Source: Squalus acanthias
Taxonomy: Eukaryota
Reading direction: 5' to 3'
Length of the DNA: 64,000 bases
Assembly (NCBI GenBank): GCA_030390025.1
Contig: CM059432.1
Span: 53,508,001 to 53,572,000 of the forward strand
In this document: positions 5,701 through 50,958 of the stretch, one piece after another
Numbering within the stretch: the stretch's first letter is position 1
Layout: each line of letters starts with the position of its first letter
The notes under the pieces: generated by a model
The model's input: only the letters and a program-made list of their open reading frames with translations
Databases searched by the model: none
What the model was told of the DNA's origin: nothing
Made by a program: the position numbers and the translations under genes

Positions 5701-7250
5701 TTCTACATCATTGTTTGCCAATATTGTTGCCCATTTTATTTTCCTCAAGTTCTATTCTCATCCCCTCAAAATTGGCTTTTTTCCAATCTATTATCCTGGT
5801 CTTTGTCATACTTATGTTCTTCTCAATTATTAAAACATATTATATTATGGCCACTATTGCTTAGATGTTCCCCTACTTTTACTTCTTTTATCTGCTCTGG
5901 TTCATTCCCTATTACTAGATCCAATAGCGAATCCTCCCTTGTTGGGCTTCTTACATATTGGGTTAGAAAGGAGTCCTGTACACATTGTAGGAACTCCATT
6001 CCCTTACCCCCTTTACCTACCCCTTCTGTCCAATTAGTATTGGGGTAGTTAAAATCCCCCATGATTATTATTCTATGTTTTTTACTCATTTCCTTAATTT
6101 TTTTGCATATTTCTTCCTCTACCTCCCTTCCACTATTAGGTGGTTTGTAGACTACCCCTATTGTGATTGATTCTTTATTATCTTTTATCTCTATTCACAT
6201 GGATTCTATTTCTGTCTTGCTGATAGCTGTGTCACTTTTTTCTACTGCCATTATGTTATCTCTAATAAGTACAGCTACTCCACCTCCACTTTTTCCCTCT
6301 CTATCTTTTCTAAATATGTTATACCCTACAATGTTTAATTCCCAGTCCTGATTTTTCTGTAGCCATGTCTCAGTAATCCCTACTATGCCTGGTTCCTCGC
6401 AATGTATTATTGCCTCCAGCTTCCCTTGTTTTATTATGGACACCGTATGCATTGCTTTACAGACAGTTTAACTCATTTTTAATAGCAGTTCCTCTCACTT
6501 TATTTTTAACTACCTTTTTACACTCCTGTTGTATAACTCTATTTATTCCCTGGCCATCAATGTCCTCCCTTACTTTATTCTTTCCTATGCTCTCCTTTCC
6601 TGTTTTGTTTATATTTAGGCTGGTTTCATTTCTTGTAGATCCCTCCCCCCGTTTTACTAGTTTAAAGCCTTTGCCACCTCTCTATTTACCCTTCCCGATT
6701 CAGGTGGAGCCCATCCCATCCTTCCTGTCCCATTACTGGTGCCAGTGTCCCATGAAAAGGAACCCCTCTTTCCCACATCAGCCCTTTAGCCACGTGTTAA
6801 TTCTTCTGATCTGACTGTTTCTATGCAAATTTGCACGTGGCTTGGGCAATAATCCAGAGATTATTACCCTCGAGGTCCTGCTTTTTAATTTAGCTCCTAC
6901 CTCCTGACACTCCCTCAGCAGTCCCTGTTCCTACCTATGTCATTTGTTCAGACATGGACCATGACAACTGGATTTTCTCCCTCCCTTTCCAAATTCCTCT
7001 CCATCCATCATGAGATGTCCCTTACCCTGGCACCGGGTAGGCAACACACCCTTTGGGATTCTCGTTCATGGCTGCAGAGGACACTATCTATCCCCCTAAT
7101 TATAGAATCCCCTATCACTACCACACTTCTATTCTGCTCTTCCCCCGCCCCCCCCCCCCCCCCCTTGGACAAGCCATGGTGCCTTGGTCTGCATTGTGGT
7201 TGTCCTCCCTGCAGTCTTTCCCCTTGTCCTCACAGGTAGCGAGTACATCA
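2789..7250 (-). mobile_element. CR1 LINE, long degenerate copy (ORF1 3' part, APE, RT, 3' tail)
   Basis: APE motifs (GITETWL, IIMGDFNYP, LLDLVI) lie at 5823-6452. RT motifs include PGPDG, YRPVSLT, QHGF, YLDFQKAFDKV, GVPQG and KFVDDTKLG. The C-terminal FFTQRVVRMWNSLP is at 2888-3106. Multiple stops and frameshifts. Confidence 0.93.
3841..4608 (-). mobile_element. Probable solo LTR inserted into CR1 ORF2
   Basis: A 768-bp non-LINE block bounded by inverted termini TGTAAG...CTTACA, with AATAAA on the minus strand near 3930. CR1 RT sequence continues on both sides. Confidence 0.7.
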
Positions 7251-22147: not shown

Positions 22148-22383
22148 TGTGGCAGATCGCCACCTAAACGGGCGCAATCCACTTTTCCGTCCGTGGACAA
22201 TAAATCGGGCACCTTGCCTTGAAGGCGCATGCTGCCTTTAAGGCATGAAAAAAGGAGTGGGCGTGGCCCTCAGGGTTTTGCAGAGAAATGTTGTAGCAGC
22301 CATTTTACCAGGAGATGTAATTAAAAGCCATGTGTTCCACATATTGACTCGGCCTCAATTCGTGCTTCGCGGCAGCCACAACA
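22148..22383 (+). repeat. Gypsy 5' LTR
   Basis: Direct repeat of 26253-26488, with 5 differences by manual count. Confidence 0.97.
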
Positions 22384-22384
22384 T

Positions 22385-22396
22385 TGGTGACCCCGA
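22385..22396 (+). promoter_or_regulatory. Primer binding site, tRNA-Trp
   Basis: TGGTGACCCCGA is complementary to the eukaryotic tRNA-Trp 3' end ...TCGGGGTCACCA. Confidence 0.85.
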
Positions 22397-22423
22397 TGCT
22401 CAGAACGTATTCCGAGCACTGCA

Positions 22424-25400
22424 ATGGCGGACACGAACGCAGTTTCCGTGAAACTGCCGGAGTTTTGGGAAAACCAGCCCGAAGCCTGGTTCCTCCAAGC
22501 CGAGGCCCGATTCCAGCGACACATCACCACAGATGGGACGAAGTACGACTACCTCGTCACATCACTCGGTAGCTCCACAGTTACAAAGGTCTGGACAGCA
22601 CTGCAGAACCCACCACAGGAGGACAAGTATGCACATCTTAAGGCCGCGCTCCTTAAAAAATTTACGGCTTCGACATACCAGCGAAACTGCCAAGTCCTCA
22701 ACCTTCCAGGCCTCGGTGATGCCTCACCGTCAGACCTCCTCTCCCACATGGTCTCCCTCACCGACGAGAGCCCACCCGGATCCCTCTTCCGCACGCTGTT
22801 CATCCGCCAGCTACCTCTCAGCATTCGCCCAGCGATCGTGGTGTCCGGCCTCACGGACCTGGAAGCCCTGGCCGATGAGGCCGACAAGCTGCTGTCCGCT
22901 CACTCCAGCCGCGACGTCACTCCGGACCTGGCAGCCACTGCCTGGGCGCGCCACTCACCGGCCACCACGCGGCCACAAGGCCCAGCCACCGGGCTCACGG
23001 GGCCTTCGCGCCCCACTAACCCGGGCCACTGTTACTACCACGCACGGTTCGGCGCCAGGGCACAACGGTGCACACCTCCCTGCTCTTTCAAGTCCGCCCC
23101 CGTACCAGCCCCCGCGATGGCCGTGGGCCACGCGGGCTCCCTGCTGTACGTCACGGATGACAAAACCGGCCGCCGGTTCCTGTGCGACACTGGAGCTCAG
23201 CACAGCATCATCCCGGCCTCCGCCCTCGACATCCAAAAGGGCAAACAAGGACCGGCGCTGGCTGCTGCTAACGGCTCGGACATCCGGACGTACAGTACCC
23301 GCACTGTCACCCTCGACCTCGCTGGTCGCCGCTACCGATGGGAGTTCATCACTGCCAAGGTGCTCTCCCCTCTCATCGGCGCAGATTTCCTGTGCGCCCA
23401 CGGCCTACTGGTAGACATCCCTTGACACCGCCTCGTGGACATGAACACCATGTCCCCCATCCTGGGCGCCATGGCCCCCCGTCAACCCGCCGACATGGCG
23501 TCACAGTGCCACGCCCGGGCCACGGATGACTACTCGGCACTCCTGGCCGAATTCCCGGCCCTTACCAATCCGACCTTCTCCGCGGAGGCCGCCAAACACG
23601 GGGTGGAACACTTCATCCCCACCACAGGCCCCCCAGTGTACGCCCACGCCCGCAGGCTGGACCCGGCCAAACTGGAGATCGCGCGGACCGAGTTTGCCAC
23701 CATGGAACAGCTCGGCATCATCCGCCGCTCCAACAGTCCCTGGGCCTCCCCACTCCACATCGCCCCCAAACCAGGTGGGGGTTGGCGCCCCTGCGGGGAT
23801 TACCGTCGCCTCAACGACGCCACCACCCCTGACCGGTACGCCGTGCCGCACATCCAGGACTTCTCGGCTAGACTGGCCGGCCGCTCAGTCTTTTCCAAGG
23901 TCGACCTGGTGCACGGCTACCACCAAGTCCCCGTCCACCCCGCGGACGTCCCCAAGACGGCCGTAATCACCCCCTTCGGCCTTTTCGAGTTCCTGCGGAT
24001 GCCCTTCGGCCTCAAAAACGCGGCCCAGGCATTCCAACGGCTCATGGACTCGGTCCTTCGGGACCTGAAGTTCCTGTTCGTCTACCTGGACGACATCCTG
24101 GTAGCCAGTTCCTCCAAGCAGGAACACCTCGAACACCTTCGCATCCTGTTCGGGCGCCTCAGCGACCACGGGCTCATCCTCAGCCCAGCCAAATGCCAGT
24201 TCGGCCTGGACAAGATCGACTTCCTCGGCCACCACATCACCCATGCTGGGGCCATTCCCCTGCCCACCAAGGTGCAGGCCGTCCAACAATTTCCCCGCCC
24301 CACCACCATCAAAGGCCTCCAGGAGTTCCTCGGGATGGTGAATTTCTACAACCGCTTCATCCCCAAAGCGGCGTCCCTCATGAGGCCCCTGTATGAAGCC
24401 CTCTGGGGCAGGAGCGGCAAGATGGCGGTCGAATGGACGGCAGACGCGTCAGCCACCTTCGACTCCACCAAGACCGCGCTCGCCAACGCCACCCTGCTCG
24501 CGCACCCACAGCCCAATGCCAGGATTGCGCTCACCACGGACGCCTCCGACCACGCGGTCGGCGCCGTGTATGAGCAGTGGGTCGACGGCGCCTGGCAACC
24601 ACTTGCCTTCTTCAGCCGCCAACTACACCCCCCGGAGGTCAAGTACAGCACCTTCGACCGCGAGCTCCTCGCGCTGTTCCTGGCGGTCCGCCATTTTCGG
24701 TTTTTGCTGGAGGGCCACCCCTTCACTGCGTTTGTCGACCACAAACCCCTGACATTCGCAATGGCAAAGACAACCGACCCCTGGTCCGCCAGGCAGCAGC
24801 GCCAGCTCGTGGCAGTGTCCGAGTTCACCACGGACATCCAAAACGTCTCCGGCCGAGACAATGTGGTAGCCGACTGCCTCTCCCGCCCCGCCATCCACGC
24901 CGCACACCTGGCAGTCGACTACGCTCAACTCGCAGCATACCAGATCACCGACCCTGATCTGCTCTCCGCACCTACCAACCTACCAGGGCTACGCCGAGCC
25001 GACGTCGCCTGTGGCCCGACCGCAGTCACGGTCAAGTGCGACATATCCCTATGTCAACCTCGGCCCGTCGTCCCAGCGTCCTGGCGCCGCCGGGTATTCG
25101 AGATTCTCCACAACCTCTCCCACCCCGGCGCCCGCGCATCCATCAAATTGGTAGCCAACCGCTTTGTCTGGCGCGGCCTTCGCAAGGATGTGTGTACTTG
25201 GGCCAACTCCTGCCTAGCCTGCCAATGGGCCAAGGTGCAGTAACACACGAAAACACCCCTCGAGGAGTTTACCGTCCCTTCGCGTAGATTCGACCACATC
25301 CACGTGGACATCGTCGGGCCCCTGCCGCCGTCGCAAGGCCACACGCACTTGCTGACGATCGTTGACCGCACCACGCGCTGGCCCGAGGCAATTCCACTGA

Positions 25401-26232
25401 CCTCTACCACCACCGCCGACATCGCCAGAGCCTTCGTCAGCACCTGGGTCGCACGGTTCGGCGTCCCCTCCGACATGACGTTGGACAGAGGTCCGCAATT
25501 TACCTCTGAACTCTGGACCGCCGTCGCACGCAATCTCGGGGTGACCATTCACCGCACCGCAGCGTACCACTCCAAGCCAACGGACTGTGTGAGCGGTTCC
25601 ACAGATCCTTGAAGGCATCTCTTCGAGCCAGCCTCCAGGACGGCGCCTGGACCGACCGACTCCCGTGGGTCCTCCTCGGCCTGCGCACCATGGTTAAAGA
25701 AGACCTCCACGCATCGGCAGCAGAGCTCGTGTACGGTCAGCCGCTGCGCATACCCGGCGAGTTCCTGCCCACCGCCACGACACCCTAGTCAGCCGACCAG
25801 CAACGGCACGACTTCGCCTCACCAGTGCTACAGTTCGCCCCGGTGCCCATTGCCCGACATGGCAAATCCACCTCACACGTCCCACTAAGCCTGCACCAGG
25901 CACGGTTCATTTTCGTCCGGCACGACACCCACTGCGGACCCCTTCAACCCCCGTACGATGGGCCCTACAAGGTGCTACAGGCTGGGGACAAATTTTTCAC
26001 CCTGCAAGTGGGCGACTGGACCGAAAAAGTGTCGGTTGACCGACTCAAGCCAGCACACTCGGAGCCCGGTGAGCAGGTCCCTGTAGCTCGTCCATCGCCA
26101 CGCGGCCGACCTGCCCTCAAGCCAGTTCACCCGGCTGCTCCACGCCCGGCCGTTGCACGTCCACCGGCGTCCTACAAGAGCCGCTCCGGCCGGCCCATCA
26201 GACCGCCGCACCGTCTCGTCCACACCTCCTAA
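22424..26232 (+). pseudogene. gag-pol: Gypsy gag-pol polyprotein, single frame, disrupted
   Basis: Gag KLPEFW...AWF and CYYHARFGARAQRCTPPC; PR CDTGA; RT YLDD; RH TDAS/DRELLA; IN H-H-C-C and DIVGP; GPY motif. Stops at 23423, 25241 and 25786, and a frameshift near 25570. Confidence 0.95.
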
Positions 26233-26252
26233 GCGGATTCTGGGGGGAGCTG

Positions 26253-26488
26253 TGTGGCGGATCACCACCTAAACGGGCGCAATCCACTTTTCCGTCCGTG
26301 GACAATAAATCGGGCACCTTGCCTTTAAGGCGCATGCTGCCTTTAAGGCATGAAAAAAGGAGTGGGCGTGGCCCTCAGGGTTTTGCAGAGAGAAGTTGTA
26401 GCAGCCATTTTACCAGGAGATGTAATTAAAAGCCATGTGTTCCACATATTGACTCGGCCTCAATTCGTGCTTCGCGGCAGCCACAACA
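26253..26488 (+). repeat. Gypsy 3' LTR
   Basis: Direct repeat of 22148-22383. Confidence 0.97.
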
Positions 26489-36849: not shown

Positions 36850-38103
36850 CTAAGCAAATCTGGCCAAGATAAGTGCGTCCCTTGCATCCCAGGCAGCAAT
36901 GTGCTCGCGTGCTGCTGCCGCTGGTTGATGCACCTCTGCAAGCTGTTCATTGTCGCTCTCCTCCTCCTCCTCCTCCTCCTCCTCCTCATCTGAGGAGGCT
37001 ATGCGATGAGCCACTTGTTCCTCAGGCATCTGCAAGCCACGATGCTGTGCCATGTTGTGAAGTGCACAGCAGACCACGACGATTCTGGAGACCCTGGCTG
37101 CTGAGTACTGCAGGGCTCCACCTGATCTATCAAGGCATCTGAAGTGCATCTTCAGCAAGCCGATGGTTTGCTCGATTATGAATCTGGTGGAAATGTGGCT
37201 GGAGTTGTAACGCTCCTCAGCTTCGTTGGATGGGCTCCTCAACGACGTCATTAGCCACGTCTTCAGGGGATAGCCCTTGTCTCCAAGTAGCCATCCGAAA
37301 AGTTGATCTGGCGGACTGAAGAGCGGAGGCACACTAGACTGGCGCAGGATGAAGGAGTCATGGCAACTGCCAGGGTACTTGGCGCAAACATGCAAAATTT
37401 CCTTCTTGTGGTCACACACCAGCTGCACGTTGAGGGAGTGGAAGCCCTTGTGGTTGACAAAAATACCTGGATTGTGATGGGGTGCCTGAAGGGCCACATG
37501 TGTGCAGTCAACGATGCCCTGCACCCTTGGAAAGCCTGCCAGATTAGCGAATCCAACCGCACACGTGCTTACACTTGTTTGATCCTTGCAGAACTTAATG
37601 TAATTGTGCGCGATGGCAAAGAGGACATCGGTTACCTGTGTGATGCAAGTGTGTGCGGCCGCCTGGGAGACGCCGCTGATGTCTGCTGTTGATCCCTGGA
37701 ATGAGCCTGAAGCAAAAAAGTTGAGTGTGGTGGTGACTTTGACGGCCACTGGTAAGGGGTGTCCACCTGCTCCTCTGGGCTCCAGGTCTTGCTGCAGCAT
37801 TGCGCAGATGTCACCCACTACCTTTCGCGAAAGTCTGAGCCTCCTTTGGCACTGCTGCTCAGTCATGTTGAGGTAGCTCATCCTCTGTCTGTAAACCCTG
37901 TTTTGGGGGTATCTCCTGCGGCGACTTGCTTCCATGCACTGGCGCCTTCTTGCCTGTGCAGCTTCAGGTGGGTGAGCAGCAGGTTGGTGCTCCTGTTGTT
38001 GCTCCTGCTGTTGGTGCTGCTGTTGTTCAGGGTTCTGCTGCTGCCGCGGCTGGTCTTCGTCCGAATCTGATGTCCGGGAGGAAAGGAAATAAATGGTTCC
38101 CAT
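36850..38103 (-). CDS. Harbinger DDE transposase, 417-aa uninterrupted ORF
   Basis: [65 protein letters not shown] and an acidic tail. Confidence 0.93.
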
Positions 38104-38640
38104 TCTTCTGGTATATACCTCAGTTGAGGAAGCGCTCAGTCAATGTGGGGAGAGGGGTTTCCCAGAAGGTCACACTAGAGATGGGTCTCAGGCTCCAAAC
38201 TTCCACAACAATGAGTAGGCCTGCTAAAAGTTCCCCCAGACCTGAGACAACAAAGTTCTGCCACCTGCAAATGATGATTGCTGAAAACTCCTTTTTAATG
38301 GTGGATCTGCTGCTGTTAGTAAGCAATCCACTTGTGAGGCCGCCAGGATTAACTGGTGTGTTCCAGAGGAGACGTGCAGCACGGTGGAAAAGTGTTAAAT
38401 TCAGAAAGGCACTAAACTGGTTGTTAAGGGCCTTAAGGGCCTATCCCGCCTCTTGGAGGCGGGATGGAAACGGGGTCTGAAACCCCGATTCTGGGAAAAT
38501 TGCTCGGAGGTGGGCTGGAGGCAGGATTGGAGCTGCTTGCCATTTTTTGCGATTTTAACACCTCACACGCCTCCAATCCCGCCTCCTCGGGCCTGGCAAA
38601 ATCGAGCCCAGAGTCTGCAAAGGGATATAGGCAGGTGACT

Positions 38641-40690
38641 CAACCGTGGATAACAGGGGAAATTAGAGACAGCATAAAATCCAAAGATAGGGCGTATAAA
38701 ATAGCCAAAAAAAGCACCAGAGCGGAAGATTGGGAACAGTTTAAGATGGAGCAAAGGAGGACAAAGGGCTTAATCAAGAGGGGCAAAATAGCTTACGAAA
38801 GCAAGCTGGCGGAAAATATAAAAACTAACTCCAAAAGCTTTTATAAGTATATCAAGAGGAAAAGACTGGTGAAAACCAAAGTTGGTCCATTGCAGTCAGA
38901 TACGGGGGAATATATAACGGGAAATAAGGAAATGGCAGACCAACTAAATGCATACTTTGGGTCAGTCTTTACGAAGGAAGACACAAAAAACCTCCCTGGG
39001 ATATCGGGAAAAATAGGGACATTTGCAAAGGAGGAACTGACGCAAATCAATATCTCTAAGGATATGGTGTTCAGGAAGCTAAAGGGATTGAAGGCGGACA
39101 AATCCCCAGGGCCTGATAACATGCATCCTAGGGTGCTGAAGGAGGTGGCCCTAGAGATAGCGGATGCACTAAGTATGATTTTTCAGAATTCATTAGACTC
39201 GGGAACAGTGCCCATGGATTGGAGGGTAGCTAACGTTACCCCACTATTCAAAAAGGGGGGTAGGGAAAAAGCAGGTAATTACAGACCTGTAAGCCTTACA
39301 TCAGTTGTGGGCAAAATGCTGGAGTCCATCATTAAGGATGAAATAGCGGAGCACTTAGCAAATGGGGACAGGATAGGACAGAGTCAACATGGATTTACAA
39401 AGGGTAAATCGTGCTTGACTAATCTATTGGAATTTTTTGAGGGAGTAACTGGTAAAATAGATGGGGGAGAGCCAGTAGATGTGGTGTACCTGGACTTCCA
39501 AAAGGCCTTCGATAAGGTCCCACATAAAAGATTAGCAGGGAAAATTGAAGCTCATGGGATAAAGGGGAAAGTATTGACGTGGATAGAGAACTGGCTGTCA
39601 GATAGAAAACAGAGAGTTGGAATAAACGGCTCATTTTCTGAATGGCAGGCAGTAACAAGTGGGGTACCGCAGGGATCTGTCCTGGGTCCCCAGCTGTTCA
39701 CAATTTACATTAATGACCTGGATCAGGGAGTCGGATGCAGCATTTCCAAATTTGCAGACGACACTAAACTAGGAGGGGGGGTGGGCTCAGAGGAGGAGAC
39801 CAGGAAGCTCCAGAGCGATTTGGACAGACTGGGTGATTGGGCGGATAAATGGCAGATGCACTATAATGTGGACAAGTGCGAAGTTATCCACCTTGGGTGC
39901 AGGAACGGGAGGGCAAATTATTATTTAAATGGCAATAAATTGGGAGAGGGGGAAGTACAGAGAGACCTGGGTGTTCTTGTACACCAGTCACTGAAGGCGA
40001 GCATGCAGGTGCAACAGGCGGTCAAGAAGGCAAACGGTATGCTGGCCTTCATAGCAAAAGGGTTGGAATACAGGAACAGGGATACCTTGCTGCAGCTGTA
40101 CAGGGCACTGGTGAGACCACACCTCGAGTACTGTGTACAGTTTTGGTCGCCTCATCTGAGGAAAGATGTTCTTGCCATGGAGGGGGTGCAGTGGCGATTC
40201 ACCAGGCTGATACCAGGAATGGCGGGATTGACCTATGAGGAGAGACTATGTAGTCTAGGGATGTACACACTGGAGTTTAGAAGATTGAGAGGGGACCTCA
40301 TAGAAGTGTATAAAATTCTGACAGGTCTAGACAGACTAGATGCAGAAGGAATGTTTCCCTTGGTGGGTGAGAACAGAACTAGAGGACATAATTTAAGGAT
40401 AAGGGCTAAACCATTTAGGACAGAAATGAGGGGGAATTTCTTCACTCAGAGGGTGGTGAACCTGTGGAACTCATTGCCACAGAGGGCAGTGTACGCCAGC
40501 TCATTAAATATATTTAAGAGGGAATTAGATATATTTCTACAGGCAAAAGGGGTTAAGGGTTACGGAGAGAAGGCGGGGACGGGATACTGAATTGGAGGAT
40601 CAGCCATGATCTCATTAAATGGCGGAGCAGGCTCGAAGGGCCGGATGGCCTACTCCTGCTCCTATCTTCTATGTATCTATGTGTCTATGT
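38641..40690 (+). mobile_element. Young 5'-truncated CR1 LINE with open RT frame to the stop at 40590
   Basis: About 650 uninterrupted codons containing PGPD, QHGF, YLDFQKAFD, GVPQGSVLGP and FADD, followed by a 3' UTR and a CTATGT-repeat tail. Confidence 0.95.
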
Positions 40691-43700: not shown

Positions 43701-43750
43701 CTGATGGACTCAATTACTTTGCTAAAAATGGCCATTTGCTCCTTTAGAAG

Positions 43751-44760
43751 TGTGGGATCGCAAATTAGGCCTGTGAAATGAAACCTATACCCCTTAGTCT
43801 TTAAATATATATTAACCAAGGCTGTAGGGCAATAATATTAGAAATCATGTCTAAAGGATAGTTAATTCACTTATAGAGAGATATCAATACGTACATATAG
43901 TTTTTTTAGATAGTTGCAAAGCATGATGGAATATTTGGTTCATTATATTAACCCTTTTAAATAATACTGAAAGGAGTGTTGCTACTTGCAGCCAGTTTGT
44001 TGGAGCCATAGCCTAACTTCTAGGCATTTTAGAAGGTCATTATCAGTGCTACAGAAGCAGTGTTTATATGTAGTTGGCCTTCTGAAGAGATAAGGGAAAC
44101 TGAACTGTACAGGGAGTCGACCATTTCTCTCTTGGTTTCGAACACCTTATCTCCCTTTGGAGCGGACCTTGTTTATCATAATAAGCTTCTCTCGAGAATT
44201 AACGAAGTATTGGTTAGATACAACAATATGGGAAAGGAAAGATAAGCGTGGTACGACCTTGTTTGAGAGACAAGATGGAGTCTGGTAGACCTCGCTCCCA
44301 GAGACTAGATGAAGGCCCTATGTATAACAACTATGTGTTATGTTTAATGTCACAGAACATTTCAGGGCGGCTCCCAACATTGAATGACTGATCATTAACC
44401 AATAAGGGAACGATGGTAGTGACGTTGTTTGTATGTGTACGCCCACTTTTGTAACCTGTGGGTGTTGCCTATCGAAAGGTATATCAATGCTTGTATGTAG
44501 TTTTCCGGGGAGAGTTGGGTTCGAGTCTGAGGAGATCAACCTCTCTCCCTTTGTGCACAAAGCCTTCTGGCTAGTTTCTAATAAACTTTTACTTTGTCTT
44601 CAGTTCCGTCTCCGTCTGGTTTTGCTCCAAATTCGATGTAACAGTAAGGCCCGTTGGTGAGTAATTGGGATGCCGGGAGCAGGGGTGACCTCTTAGGACT
44701 TTAATTAGTCCTGGTGTCAGAAGTGGGCCCCTGTGAAAAAGTCCCAATTCTGATCTAACT
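43751..44760 (+). repeat. ERV 5' LTR (1010 bp)
   Basis: Direct repeat of 49062-50139. AATAAA at 44580. Ends in CT rather than CA. Confidence 0.97.
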
Positions 44761-44762
44761 GT

Positions 44763-44780
44763 TGGTGTCAGAAGTGGGAT
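44763..44780 (+). promoter_or_regulatory. Primer binding site, tRNA-Leu
   Basis: TGGTGTCAGAAGTGGGAT is the 18-nt complement of the vertebrate tRNA-Leu(CAA/CAG) 3' end ATCCCACTTCTGACACCA. Confidence 0.92.
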
Positions 44781-45328
44781 ACTGGACTGGAATGTTGGGT
44801 GCGGTGGTTGAGGGTCACTCCTTAAGAGAATTGTTGGAGTTGGGCTTTTCCTGGACTCCCTGTTGCAAATCCCTCATGGCGAGTCGCGCTCGCAAATAAG
44901 CACCAGCCAGGCACAGTATTAAATTATCCACGTAGTTAAATTATTCCTCACGGAGACTCACGGGTTGACGGAATTGACTAGACCTAACTGTGTGTATTCC
45001 GATTTAAAGTAGAAGTGTTTGTCATTGTTCTGCTTGAGTGTTTGTCATTATTGAGAGTCACGGGTGATCGACACGGACAAGGGTGGTTGGTTGTCTATCT
45101 CAAACACCTAGCCTGAGCCTGAATTAAGAGGACGTAGTCCCACGTGATGGCCAGGATCAAGTAGGTATAGGGAACTTCGAACACACCACAGGATCGTGAT
45201 CCCGTGACGAGTAAGAGGAAAAAAAAGATAGAGCATAAGGTGATACGTTTGTGCCGATTAAAGTATAAGATTAGACTAAAGTAAGTTAAAGTATAAGATA
45301 AAGCATAAGGATATACGTGATTATAAGT

Positions 45329-45669
45329 ATGAGTGACGAGGGGAAACCCCTTTCACCGGACGTTCCGGCTATGGCCACCAGTGTCACTGTTGTTAAGTGG
45401 GTCCAAGAGGCTAATCTGAAATACCAGAGTGAGATGATTAAAAATGGGTGGAAAGAAATAAGTCCAGTAGCCGATCAAATTGCCCGGTGACGGGTAAACC
45501 ATGTACCAACTGCGGTCGCTTCGGACACACTTGGGTTGCTTGTTTCAAAAAGGGTGGAGGAAGGGAGGAACTTGGATCACAGGGACCACAAAGGGGGGCG
45601 CTGTCTGACCGAGAGTTGGAAGGACTACGGGCCCTCCTCCTCTCGCCACCAGCTCCTCACCACGATTAG
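45329..45669 (+). pseudogene. gag: gag remnant: probable N-terminus joined out of frame to the nucleocapsid
   Basis: A 53-aa ORF from ATG 45329, then a CX2CX4HX4C knuckle CTNCGRFGHTWVAC (45502-45543) in another frame, ending in TAG at 45667. Confidence 0.8.
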
Positions 45670-46249
45670 GATACCCCAGTCTCCTCCGTCGGAGGACCGG
45701 GGGCCACCCGCCCGTGTCTAAATGTACTGTTAGGAGGCCGGCAGTATTGTGCTCTTATAGACACGGGAGCCTCGGTGTCGATAACCGACTCGAAATTCCC
45801 TACAATAGATCAAACCATCCAAGTAAGCGGCGTTAGTGGAGAAAGTGTGATCCTCCATCAGAGTGTTCCGATTCCATTGCAATTATCCCCCTCAGGGTAC
45901 GGGAGACACCTCCCAATTTCAGACCACTCTCCTGACGTACCTACGTATGCTCAGTGAGACAAATCAGGCCAATAAATTTCGGGTTAAATATCTACAGGAG
46001 GCACAGGATGATAAACGAATGGAGGGAGTTTGGAAAATACCACCTAGTGTGGGACAGTGGGTGATGGTTCAGCGACCAGTTCGAGGTACGTTTGAGCCAC
46101 GGTGGGATGGACCTTTCCAGATCCTCCTTAGTACAGGAACCTCCATTTGCCTGCAAGAAAAATTAGATGTAAGGTGGAGACACTGGAGCCAGACTAAGCT
46201 GGTGATGGCGCCCGGGGAAGGAATTTCCCCCGACCCTCAGGACCCCTAG
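45670..46249 (+). pseudogene. pol: pol remnant: protease N-half joined to integrase C-terminus
   Basis: ALIDTGASVS (DTG 45760-45768) is in frame with gag. After ~45880 another frame gives GQWVMV...FEPRWDGPFQILL...WRHWSQTK. No RT or RNase H motifs. Confidence 0.85.
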
Positions 46250-46682
46250 GGCTGAGGAGAGAAAAAAAAAACCCTGCAGACTGGATTCTGTCATTTTCAG
46301 TGTACTGTCACTTTAAAAGCCTGTGCTTTCCTTCTCAAGGTCACAGGCTGCGCGCTCTCTCTCTCTCTCTCTCTCTTCTGAAGAGTGTTGTTGCTACATA
46401 AAAAAAATCTGATTGAAGTGAATGGAATGTATGTGCCTGTCAGCTGAGGCAATGAATTATCAAATGATTATTAATAATGCGAATAACTTTATTTTCCTCC
46501 AAGTGTTTGATTAGGACCAAGTCCGTAAAATTACGTAGAGTCCTCGAGTTGTTATTTGCCTTGTGTTTTTCTTACAGACGTTCCACCCGGCCTCAGTACT
46601 GTTACCACTTCTGGGGATACCGACCCTCCAACAACGCAAAGTATTCTCCCCTTTGACTTGAAGTGGTATTATATTAAACACT

Positions 46683-48726
46683 ATGGGATGGCTCTTAAGA
46701 ATAATAGGGCTGCTGTTGGTCAAACAGACCGCAGCCGCCACAGAACTGGAGTGGTGTGGGAATGATTTCAGCACCCATACATGTTACATGGATGACCGCC
46801 GAATAGGAGTATGTGTAGATTACGAGACCGGGGAAAGAATGGCTCAATGCTGTCAGAATAATCAGGGCATTTGGCACCCCTTATGTACGCCCACTCGAGT
46901 CAAGTGCCAACAATATGGTAAAGGTGTGGTAGCGAATGGCCCTCCACCCCCTATAATTCACTGTTATTGGGGTCAAGATCCACCCCAAACCACTAACCCG
47001 ACACCAGCCTACAGGCCACTGATTTGCCCATTTATGAAGGAAGGACCCGTTAGTGGATTGGTGTTCACCCCAAACCAGAAACACATTGTATGATAACATA
47101 CGACATGAATTAGTCCCAGTAGTCCTGAACTTGACCGACACCGCCCTGCCCGTATGGTGCTCGTCACAAACCCAGCAATTGTATCAGCGTCTCATAACAC
47201 AGGTATTGAGACAAGGCGCGATCCGCAGTGGAGGTGGGTACAATAAAAGGAACAGGCGGGTATGGCGCCGGAAAAGGGATTTACTAAATGATGCAGCGAT
47301 GGTTTTTAATACAGGCGCGTCAGTGGTTAATACCATCGATCTGGCTGCATTAGACCAGAAGGTTCGAAATTTGAGCTCACGGCTCAAAGCCGTTTTACAA
47401 GAGCAGAATAAGAACGAGGGTCAAGAATTAAGGGAGGATCAGATATTAACCATCTACCTCCAGGACATAGCCACTGTACTAGAAGCACACGCGCAGACAA
47501 TAAATAAGATAGTCAAAGAAGAACACAATTTCTCACAGCAGGCAGCGGCGAACGATGCCTGCAGCACATATGGTAATTGGATAGTTGAGCAGACCCGAGA
47601 GAATTTAGACCAAATACAGGGAGGGGAAGTACCCTTGTGGATTACCAACCAACAATTAAAAGGGACTCTAACCCACGGGCATGCTGGGAAGGGTACACCC
47701 AAACGCCTTCTGGATAGCCTTAACATAACGACCTGTCAATTTCGGGCCATGATACGGGTATACCCCACCCAAGTAGAATGTAAGCAAAAGGGGGGAGGTC
47801 TCCTGGGCTTAGTGCTGGTCATTCCGGTACTGACCCCGGAGACTCAAGGACGCGAGGTATACCAAGTACAAAATATTGGTGTAATAAAAGATGGCATGCA
47901 CATATCTCACCATAATATGTTACCTTACACAGTGATGATAAATGGAAATCTAGTGGGTACCAGACTAGAAGGATGTACCACCCGACATGCCATCATCATG
48001 TGCCCGCATGCAATCAACCACAGCCCACAGAGCCGATGTGGTTTTAATACCACAGACCTGGAGATTAACTGCACCATGGAAGCATTGGATGCCACCGCCA
48101 AACCCACCCAAGTGGCATATGCCGGTAGGGGTGAATATTGTGTTACGACCAACTTGAATACGTTCCATTACGGCAATCTAACATGTGATATTCCCCGCCC
48201 AGAGTTCTGCTTCACCCCAGAAATTCCCGTACGAATTGGACATGAGGAACTGGTGGACATACATCAGTATGATACCACTTCTCTCCAAGTATCCGAGGAC
48301 ATTAAGAATGATTTGCGAAACTACATCAACACTTTTGGGTACCCAATAACCCCACTGCCCGAACATTTAAAGCAGTTACGGGGAAGGATTCAACATTCCC
48401 AACGGGTGTATTATACCCTACAACAATGGAGCAAGAATCTGAAGAAAGATATCAACGCGATCAAGGTGACCACATGGTGGGATGACATTTGGGACTGGGG
48501 ACTAAATATACAGATCCATCCGTGGATCAGACTAATTTCACACATATTGGTCATGGTGCAGTTAATACTGGTTGTCGGCCTGTAATGTATGGCATGTAAG
48601 AAATGTAAGAAGATTCAGGCAAAACGGATTGCAAAACAAATGATTAAAACTGTTAGTGCATGCACTGCCCCTCCTACGCGTAGCTTGGACGACTTTGGAC
48701 GGTTGTTAGAAAATTCAAGTGTATGA
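46683..48726 (+). pseudogene. env: env, class I fusion glycoprotein, one frameshift (~47084) and one in-frame stop (48583)
   Basis: Signal-like MGWLLRIIGLLLVKQTAAA, furin site RRKR (47266-47277), heptad region, Cys-rich central domain, second heptad, WWDDIWDW, hydrophobic TM, and a Cys/Lys-rich tail after the stop. Confidence 0.9.
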
Positions 48727-49049
48727 ATAATGAAGCAATGGTATAATGAATCGGGGATTGCCTAACTATTAACTTTACTCATCTGATGCATACCTGGTGC
48801 CCAGACGGGTGGCCACCCCGACAGGAGTCACACCAGACCATATACAACAGATGGGCGGCCTACTTGGATTAACCAAAGACCTAAAAGGGGGGGGAGGGAA
48901 TACAGGAAAACTTCATCATTCATGCAATTTGAGCTGGAGAAAACCTATAGGTGGTTCTGCAATATATATATTCATCAGTTTATTATATTAACATAGTTGT
49001 AGAGAGAGCACATTTCTCAACCCCGCTTCAAGTATCTTTTCCGGGGGTT

Positions 49050-49059
49050 GAAAGGGGGG
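49050..49059 (+). promoter_or_regulatory. Polypurine tract
   Basis: GAAAGGGGGG followed by AC and the LTR-initial TG. Confidence 0.88.
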
Positions 49060-49061
49060 AC

Positions 49062-50139
49062 TGTGGGATCGCAAATTAGGCCTGTGAAACGAAACCTATA
49101 CCCCTTAGTCTTTAAATATATATTAACCAAGGCTGTAGGGCAATAATATTAGAAATCATGTCTAAAGGATAGTTAATTCATTTATAGAGAGATATCAATA
49201 CGTACATATAGATGTTTTAGATAGTTGCAAAGCATGATGGACCATTTGGTTCATTATATTAACCCTTTTAAATAATACTGAAAGGAGTGTTGCTACTTGC
49301 AGCCAGTTTGTTGGAGCCATAGCCTAACTTCTAGACATTTTAGAAGGTCATTATCAGTGCTACAGAAGCAGTGTTTATATGTAGTTGGCCTTCTGAAGAG
49401 ATAAGGGAAACTGAACTGTACAGGGAGTCGGCCATTTCTCTCTTGGTTTCGAACACCTTATCTCCCTTTGGAGCGGACCTTGTTTATCATAATAAGCTTC
49501 TCTCGAGAATTAACGAAGTATTGGTTAGATACAACAATATGGGAAAGGAAAGATAAGCGTGGTACGACCTTGTTTAAGAGACAAGATGGAGTCTGGTAGA
49601 CCACGCTCCCAGAGACTAGATGAAGGCCCTATGTATAACAACTATGTGTTATGTTTAATGTCACAGAACATTTCAAGGCGGCTCCCAACATTGAATGACT
49701 GATCATTAACCAATAAGGGAACAATGGTAGTGACGTTGTTTGTATGTGTGCGCCCACTTTTGTAACCTGTGGGCGTTGCCTATTGAAAGGTATATCAATG
49801 CTTGTATGTAGTTTTCCGGGGAGAGTTGGGTTCGAGTCTGAGGAGATCAACCTCTCTCCCTTTGTGCACAAAGCCTTCTGGCTAGTTTCTAATAAACTTT
49901 TACTTTGTCTTCAGTTCCGTCTCCGTCTGGTTTTGCTCCAAATTCGATGTAACAGTAAGGCCCGTTGGTGAGTAATTGGGATGCCGGGAGCAGGGGTGAC
50001 CTCTTAGGACTTTAATTAGTCCCGGTGTCAGAAGTGGGCCCCTGTGTAAAACCCAGAGCAGGGGTGACCTCTTAGGACTTTAATTAGTCCCGGTGTCAGA
50101 AGTGGGCCCCTGTGAATAAGTCCCAATTCTGATCTAACA
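49062..50139 (+). repeat. ERV 3' LTR (1078 bp)
   Basis: TG...CA termini; 68 bp longer than the 5' LTR because of a repeated U5 unit. Confidence 0.97.
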
Positions 50140-50958
50140 GAAGCATGTTACAAATTTGTCACTATTATCTCTTTTACCTTTCCTGGGCCTCTGTTCCACT
50201 ATTGGTGTGGCATATGCATTGCTCTGATTTTCCTGCTGACTATCATGGTGGGAAACTCTGATGCATCCTTACAGATGTGAATCACCCACCCCAAGTCATT
50301 AAATGACCTTGTCCCTGCAATTTGAGATGTTGTCTGCCCTGCTGGTCATGGGTGGAAAGGGGTACTGCCCACCGAACATCGTAGGCAGAGCGGGACCAAA
50401 TGTGAGTCTTCTGTGAAATGTCATCAACTGGCTTCATTTGCAATGTAGTTCAATGCTCATTCCTGCAAAATAGTGAAATATCAACAAATCTAATTCCGCA
50501 CATTCACAAATACTTTGCTCACCAAGATAAATTGCACCCTTACTCTTTGGTCTATGGAAAGAATCAACTGTTTACATGATGATAAATATTCTTATTAAAA
50601 AATCTGTATAATAAGTTTTGTGTCTGTCTGTATGAATGTATGATTGCATAAGTATCACATTTCAAATTGTTCTGTTATAACCACGTAGTATTATCAGTCT
50701 TGTGTTTAGTGGAGACAGAACATATCAGAAAACAGCATTCCATAGCAAATACAATAAGCAACCATTTCATTTCCACACCAAAAACTGAAAATTTAATTCC
50801 ATTGAAATTGTGGTAACCATTTAAGGGTAATAACTGAAGATTTAACCAAGTAATTCAAAGGAACTGTAATGCTTTAAAAATTTACTTTGTAAGTGAACTG
50901 TATTAGTGTCAGCTGTGGCTTAGTTGGTAGCACCCTCACCTCTGAGTCAGAAGATTGT

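Follow-up and report, generated by a model that had tools for sequence, protein, structure and literature searches.

Introduction

Lokiretroviruses, described by Wang & Han (PMC7947760) and later renamed lokiorterviruses (available text of PMC9040795), have been reported from five vertebrate classes, and the accessible part of the original description lists four scenarios for the origin of env and records none of three chondrichthyan genomes as positive (PMC7947760). Independent origins of env were subsequently preferred on the ground that no similarity is detectable between canonical and loki Env (PMC9040795, available sections). Foamy virus Env is a published F-like protein of class Ib (gp130, PDB 8RM0/8RM1; available text of PMC11468914), and Env of the walleye epsilonretroviruses WDSV and WEHV was called distinct and recent in the accessible part of PMC9967133. 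A survey of anamniotes searched gamma- and beta-type Env alone, according to its available text (bioRxiv 2021.11.23.469661), so that a class of F-type Env would have been invisible to it.

In the present study a stretch of 64,000 nt from Squalus acanthias (the window) was analyzed, in which an earlier note had recognized an endogenous retroviral env with F-protein architecture and had suggested a loki-like or new retroviral lineage. That the known loki hosts omit chondrichthyans, as the note had supposed, agrees with the three negative genomes in the accessible part of PMC7947760.

Materials and Methods

References were taken from public contigs and comprised two loki elements (L043, L044), SnRV, WDSV, and genomes of the foamy, gamma, delta and lenti groups. 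Group labels were presumed from size and layout. L043 and L044 were called loki by close resemblance to published loki sequences, and the SnRV reference (L042/L086) measures 10,688 nt, as in PMC12193657.

Because the window copy possesses no RT, its placement was based on the RT of relatives. Trees were computed first with 69 rows (quick mode) and later with 36, 32 and 27, redundant bird and foamy rows being thinned and P0094 removed on account of its shortness; loki was represented by just two rows, close relatives of each other, and ERV-L/ERV-S, fish foamy-like ERVs and Odin were left out. A young Gypsy-type element of the window (22,148–26,488, with 236-bp LTRs 98% alike and gag-pol frames at 22,391–25,243) was used as outgroup.

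For the fold, a naturally unbroken sister frame of 681 aa, 96% identical to the window Env over the shared part, was modeled as a monomer with AF2 from a 38-row alignment; a single-sequence fold (pLDDT 37) was discarded.

Results

Anatomy of the provirus

The env belongs to a deleted provirus of 6.4 kb (43,751–50,139) with LTRs 1.7% apart (17 mismatches in 987 bp, K2P 0.0175). Its features, and two frames elsewhere in the window, are the following:

36,850–38,139, reverse strand: DDE_Tnp_4 (Harbinger-like) transposase frame (Pfam)
38,437–40,590, forward strand: LINE RT frame (Pfam)
43,747–43,750, forward strand: left target-site duplication of 4 bp, identical to the four bases directly 3' of the 3' LTR
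43,751–44,760, forward strand: 5' LTR of 1,010 bp with TG start, from sequence comparison
44,763–44,780, forward strand: primer-binding site (PBS), an 18-mer that recurs unchanged ahead of gag in 11 of the 20 upstream regions fetched
45,329–45,669, forward strand: gag remnants, the N-terminus followed in another frame by a CX2CX4HX4C zinc knuckle, capsid deleted
45,670–45,957, forward strand: protease remnant with DTGA (Pfam RVP, E 2.9e-5)
45,851–46,249, forward strand: integrase C-terminal remnant (Pfam MLVIN_C, E 8e-7)
46,683–47,277, forward strand: Env N-subunit with signal peptide, Cys-rich head, F-core start and RRKR
47,278–48,726, forward strand: Env C-subunit, from the putative fusion peptide to the Cys/Lys tail
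49,050–49,061, forward strand: polypurine tract (PPT), from the sequence
49,062–50,139, forward strand: 3' LTR with CA end and a 68-bp tandem duplication near its end, from comparison with the 5' LTR
50,140–50,143, forward strand: right target-site duplication (4-bp repeat)

Capsid, RT, RNase H and integrase core are all deleted. The gag N-terminus is 73–75% identical to the 434-aa Gag frame of a sister subfamily, and zinc-knuckle profile matches (Pfam) in the gag remnant are weak. Best matches of the protease remnant were three loci of the same genome, L025 (51%), L038 (49%) and L039 (43%), with no match among the loki loci; the integrase remnant matched L025, L036, L039 and L038 (E 1e-14 to 3e-8). 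The PBS is taken to be of the tRNA-Leu(CAA) type, and an ARAGORN search found no tRNA. Target-site duplications of 4 bp likewise flank L003, L006 and L008. Substitution rates are slower in sharks. The insertion is thus probably older than the about 4 million years that the LTR divergence gives at 2.2e-9, the mammalian rate used by Wang & Han. The window copy is an ordinary dead ERV, and a full Env cannot be made from it.

Two peculiarities of the LTRs were observed. The LTR has grown by ~117 bp past an older TG...CA end (44,644–44,760) and carries a PBS-like copy inside the extension, and in the sister subfamily the PBS directly adjoins LTR position 895. The 68-bp tandem duplication, within 49,955–50,139 of the 3' LTR, is also present in several other copies.

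Features of the envelope gene

All env features named in the earlier note (signal peptide, pre-cleavage subunit of ~200 aa, RRKR, subunit of ~480 aa, and the listed motifs, among them the Cys pattern, WWDDIWDW, TM and Cys/Lys tail) were recovered in the translation of 46,683–48,726, which is broken by one frame change and one stop. A Met at 46,683 opens the frame with the signal peptide, the frame changes near 47,085–47,095 into one of 515 aa, RRKR follows at 47,266–47,277, ~198 codons past the Met, and the single stop of the 482-codon C-subunit (48,583–48,585) lies at the end of the TM. In the N-subunit the start of the F core is marked by CP..GP.SGLV; the C-subunit displays, in order, a putative fusion peptide, heptad A, Cys-rich beta domains, heptad B, the Trp-rich segment, TM and tail. 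The putative fusion peptide is mildly hydrophobic (Kyte-Doolittle 0.73 over the first 20 aa vs 1.84 in loki L043). As the note had stated, no gamma-type immunosuppressive or CX6CC motif was found: scanning the window Env for CX5-7CC, an ISD-like motif and an N-subunit CXXC yielded none, and the gamma-type features (CXXC in SU, ISD and CX6CC in TM) are accordingly absent from it.

Copy number, relatives and selection

The 3.7-Gb genome contains at least 89 env matches (84 scored of 11,701 candidates) and at least 58 LTR matches (40 scored of 604 candidates), and phmmer over 1.8 billion representatives retrieved 45 relatives of Env outside this genome, so that the env match is not due to chance; word-index protein searches gave only two and one relatives. 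Among ten relatives looked up, six were named to sharks or skate and two to frogs, hence Env relatives occur in sharks, skates and frogs. Two further F-class env families are abundant in the host genome. The available texts of PMC6001957, PMC12583693, PMC11521997, PMC12440569, PMC13709493, PMC12690878 and three preprints, a survey with Repbase outside its scope, contain no description of this env family.

The search for RT-bearing relatives by way of the LTR, which the earlier note had proposed, led nowhere: all nine LTR pairs among the 40 scored matches leave no room for an RT, eight of them spanning 4.7–5.6 kb and one (L009) 9.2 kb. L009 was considered as a full-length copy and rejected, containing a nested Gypsy-like element.

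In the sister subfamily, whose env is ~77% identical to that of the window, the 434-aa Gag frame and env occur without RT in 11 of the 20 upstream regions (L022–L041), and some env copies have unbroken frames. This subfamily has lost RT yet kept open Gag and env, the reverse of the usual loss of env. Pairwise dN/dS of env was 0.11–0.12 between subfamilies and 0.19–0.48 within them, and below 1 in all 14 pairs, which are non-independent. Env thus shows purifying selection (0.11–0.48) and was functional while the pol-less families spread.

In five annotated host proteins (P0003, P0004, P0019, P0026, P0028) env is joined to exons of zinc-finger, F-box, cadherin or Niban genes; such chimeric gene models are probably annotation artefacts.

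Predicted fold of Env

The AF2 model reached a pLDDT of 67 overall and of 80–95 in the core (pTM 0.49). It places long helices after the cleavage site (190–243, 252–313), followed by a beta-rich Cys domain (359–524), a second helix (559–594) and the TM. Foldseek against PDB returned, among the matches listed, paramyxo- and pneumovirus F only (RSV F E 3.8e-10, hPIV3 F E 6.7e-10), and in VIA-align the F proteins of NDV (top, Z 10.1, rmsd 17.3, 376 aligned), measles (Z 9.2) and henipavirus (Z 8.7) as well as two foamy Env structures (Z 8.5, rmsd 9.2, 286 aligned; Z 7.6) outranked unrelated coiled coils. The top three clusters matched in Atlas carry PF00523, and matches in BFVD included Env of WEHV-1 (4.5e-11), WDSV (7.7e-8) and feline foamy virus (1.2e-5) as well as lispivirus glycoproteins, with baculovirus F ranking high. 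Whole-model TM-scores are low (0.2–0.35) and rmsd high because of the long helices. On the predicted structure, the F-protein architecture claimed for this env, that of paramyxo- and pneumovirus F, was confirmed. The alignments to F and foamy Env start at about residue 123, in the N-subunit, and end at about 531–596; in the model both subunits thereby feed the F core, which agrees with the class Ib layout as given in the available text of PMC11468914.

Sequence searches reached less far. The single window protein gave no useful Env-fold match in Pfam or PDB, and none to Pfam PF00523 or Baculo_F; one of 27 relatives matched Baculo_F weakly. The best PDB sequence-profile match was foamy Env (E 0.003). 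A best hit to gamma, epsilon or foamy Env by profile or structure had been named beforehand as evidence against the reading of the note; this came true for the sequence profile, but the best structural matches were F proteins.

The N-terminal Cys-rich head (~aa 25–115) was modeled with pLDDT below 50 and, searched against Atlas, gave no match. Relatives carry differing heads, one with a weak V-set match, from which we infer that a receptor-binding head varies on top of an F core that is conserved.

Kinship with other retroviral envelopes

With the 38-row Env profile, loki Env scored 67 bits, foamy Env 13–28, WDSV 24.8 and SnRV 16, and gamma, delta and lenti Env at most 0.4 (gamma at most 0), shuffled-sequence maxima being 1.7–5.7 bits. 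In hhalign the probability was 98.4 for loki Env and 87.7 for SnRV Env (E 3.4e-6, 277 columns in the C-half). A chondrichthyan-only profile gave loki Env 26 bits and the others at most 8 (shuffled maximum 3.6). Compared one sequence against the other, window Env and loki Env reached just 7 bits, and frog Env proteins came closer to loki Env (22–38 bits). Loki Env is therefore, by sequence, the nearest named relative of the window Env (~16% identity), and the likeness that the earlier note had proposed holds.

An F-like Env is, however, common to foamy viruses, SnRV and the walleye epsilonretroviruses too and is not loki-specific, so that the F architecture does not point specifically to loki. 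With small profiles SnRV, WDSV and foamy Env matched weakly (hhalign probability 8–20; HMM 1–8 bits), and their links rest for that reason on the 38-row profile and on structure. The SnRV Env lies at 6131–9535 of L042/L086 and the WDSV/WEHV Env at 5962–9651 of L079; both match the F-type profile and fold. Outside subscription papers, Repbase and preprint supplements, no paper was found that ties walleye/epsilon, ERV4 or SnRV Env to F. Part of the point on F-type Env may already have been made by Calcraft et al. in 2024.

Polymerase of env-linked relatives

In three of the 20 fetched upstream regions (L025, L038, L039) pol runs straight into env-family sequence. Their env is 51–62% identical to that of the window, and their protease and integrase are the best matches of the window remnants. 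The pol frame of L025 contains an RT_RNaseH remnant (tether) followed by RNase_H, which is not diagnostic of loki because a tether and a second RNase H are common to all retroviruses. Against PDB the linked RT scored 168 bits to MLV, 166 to foamy virus and 98 to Ty3; SnRV RT is 42% identical to it. The linked RTs share the motif LPQGFHNSP and a short PR-RT distance, whereas in loki the motif reads PFGY[AS]NSP and several hundred residues separate PR from RT.

In the RT-only tree (36 rows, 289 columns) the linked RTs and three shark or other proteins formed a clade (98/96) in a polytomy within Retroviridae (88/91), and joining this host clade with loki was borderline in the AU test (p 0.052). 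In the RT+tether tree of 27 rows and 432 columns, of which two host rows cover about 280–300, the host clade (100/99) was sister to gamma, epsilon and fish relatives (97/94), with loki outside. It stood beside, not inside, gamma+epsilon on RT+tether, and its position was unresolved on RT alone. On RT+tether, host+loki was rejected (AU p 3.4e-5); host+foamy was likewise rejected (p 0.023) and host+SnRV was not (p 0.055), but free trees never joined the host clade with SnRV. In the integrase tree, which was built without a CGIN1 row and is in loose agreement, host integrase was placed beside class I (90/90) and apart from loki; it scored 101 bits to SnRV vs 152–233 to class I rows. A Gypsy-type RT with a single RNase H was not found, and the linked RTs lay far from Gypsy rows. 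A position within Gypsy or a known genus had been named in advance as contrary to the reading of the note; the RT falls in Retroviridae, yet outside every genus sampled.

Upstream of another env copy lies a second retroviral family, a very young one (pol A, L034, 4319–9900), for which all 104 scored RT matches are 98–100% identical. Its RT was considered for placement and rejected, since an LTR and PBS lie between pol A and env. Pol A may have a deep position near SnRV and coelacanth rows; the predicted protein P0040 fuses a pol A-type pol to an F-class env, and an ~11-kb tandem spacing resembling that of pol A is seen in an env family of high copy number with frames of 789 aa. More than 130 further RT matches in the genome are 63–69% identical to L038, many in open frames of 1,185–1,187 aa.

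Discussion

The window copy is probably a non-autonomous dead ERV whose progenitors were canonical retroviruses on a deep branch beside gamma/epsilon, equipped with a class Ib fusogen. Such a family is best filed as an orthoretrovirus-side lineage with class Ib Env, widespread in cartilaginous fish and with Env relatives in frogs. The RT placement comes from relatives just 51–62% identical in Env, and recombination could separate env from RT. Judged by the RT sequences of these env-linked relatives, membership in the lokiretroviruses was largely refuted, and of the earlier "loki-like or new retroviral lineage" the new lineage stands, while loki-like would apply to env only.

By analogy with F and foamy Env, the protein would be made with a signal peptide, trimerize and be cut by furin at RRKR. 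The N-subunit would stay in the F core, its N-terminal Cys-rich head probably binding the host cell; on triggering, heptad A would refold as a coiled coil and thereby drive the newly created N-terminus into the membrane of the target, whereupon heptad B would zip back. As RT and integrase core were lost while LTRs, PBS, PPT and env were kept, the family presumably spread on borrowed Pol (and Gag) from a helper, with its own Env still selected.

Compared with known systems, the family shares with loki the F-like Env with signal peptide, RXKR, heptads and TM, the tether with RNase H, and within Env the core start GP.xG[IL]V, G.[IV]P.[WY], I[GL].[VI]L.[IL]P and the Cys spacing. It differs in the canonical Retroviridae RT of the linked relatives and their short PR-RT spacer, in an extra N-terminal head of ~90 aa with a weakly hydrophobic fusion peptide, and in a host class from which the available text of PMC7947760 reports no loki. 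From the paramyxo- and pneumovirus F proteins (RSV 6APB, hPIV3 1ZTM, NDV 3MAW), with which it has in common the short N- and long C-subunit, domain order and fold, it is separated by 8–14% identity and by having a head where those viruses use a separate attachment protein. The Spumaretrovirinae have an LP-SU-TM Env of ~990 aa and a Gag without Cys-His box. Foamy gp130 resembles the window Env in the F core, as the PDB profile and both VIA-align matches indicate, but the latter measures ~680 vs 990 aa and has no leader peptide or inserted RBD; moreover, the window Gag has a zinc knuckle (Cys-His box), and grouping by RT was rejected. WDSV/WEHV have Env models of the same fold and their RT in the sister clade, but the host lineage lies outside their genus, is devoid of cyclin ORFs and has an Env half the length.

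Among other explanations, the most serious is that the same anatomy belongs to a lineage with SnRV (the snakehead retrovirus; clade Huo, class III-like) and not beside class I. It is rather unlikely, although the AU test tolerates the grouping, the C-half of SnRV Env is homologous, SnRV Gag matches both the window zinc knuckle (E 3e-4) and the 434-aa Gag (E 5e-9), and ERVs of the SnRV clade were reported from fish to birds (available texts of PMC12193657 and PMC6001957). Against it stand the starred 97/94 branch with class I, the free trees and the integrase scores; SnRV also differs in its accessory ORFs and in an Env of 1,134 codons, whose N-part and tail are much longer. That the window holds a genuine lokiretrovirus, which would be the first of any cartilaginous fish, is improbable: loki Env is the best-scoring named Env, the RT-only AU test is borderline, and one coelacanth Pol lies near loki in the integrase tree, as does pol A of the host, which is unrelated, but the RT+tether test, RT motif and PR-RT spacing all contradict it, the single-sequence Env score is low, and loki Env has no N-terminal head and a far more hydrophobic fusion peptide. 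The loki RT motif, searched as one pattern with one mismatch, which is not proof of absence, was unmatched in the host genome.

Domestication of the window env as a host fusogen is most improbable. Its dN/dS below 1 and the unbroken sister copies would suit such a role, but the window copy is interrupted by a frame break and a stop, its family is multicopy with LTRs 98% alike, and selection is at its strongest in comparisons between subfamilies, which viral replication would lead one to expect. A Gypsy element of errantivirus type with F-type env hardly comes into consideration at all: invertebrate Gypsy elements commonly carry such an env (bioRxiv 2023.10.26.564294, available text) and baculovirus F ranks high in BFVD, but the linked pol has a tether and second RNase H, scores far better with MLV and foamy virus than with Ty3, and is distant from Gypsy in trees.

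If the preferred placement of the family beside gamma/epsilon is followed, an Env tied to a canonical-type RT does share similarity with loki Env, contrary to the premise in the available text of PMC9040795, and the same profile and fold reach Env of SnRV and the walleye viruses, two orthoretroviruses to whose Env the consulted papers assign no type. This hints at a greater age and a wider spread of F-type Env among retroviruses than has been supposed. It might even, as a tentative suggestion that we hold slightly more doubtful than probable, be the Env that retroviruses had ancestrally and that was passed down to loki, foamy viruses, SnRV, the shark/frog lineage and walleye epsilonretroviruses, with gamma- and beta-type Env as later replacements; the alternative would be repeated env swapping among aquatic viruses. 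Were F-type Env ancestral, the shark family would be a bridge, combining a canonical RT with an Env still similar to loki in sequence, and three published positions, as worded in the accessible parts of the papers, would be overturned: the preferred scenario of independent origins (PMC9040795), the assignment of all orthoretrovirus Env to class Ia (PMC11468914) and the view of WDSV Env as a recent development (PMC9967133). Since sharks, skates and frogs carry many genomic copies, it becomes possible to test how retroviral env originated.

Outside the retroviruses, the glycoprotein of the fish filovirus Wenling thamnaconus (BFVD A0A2P1GML9) also matched the F-type model (E 1.6e-11); fish filoviruses are without the retrovirus-like ectodomain of other filoviruses, according to the available text of PMC11521997.
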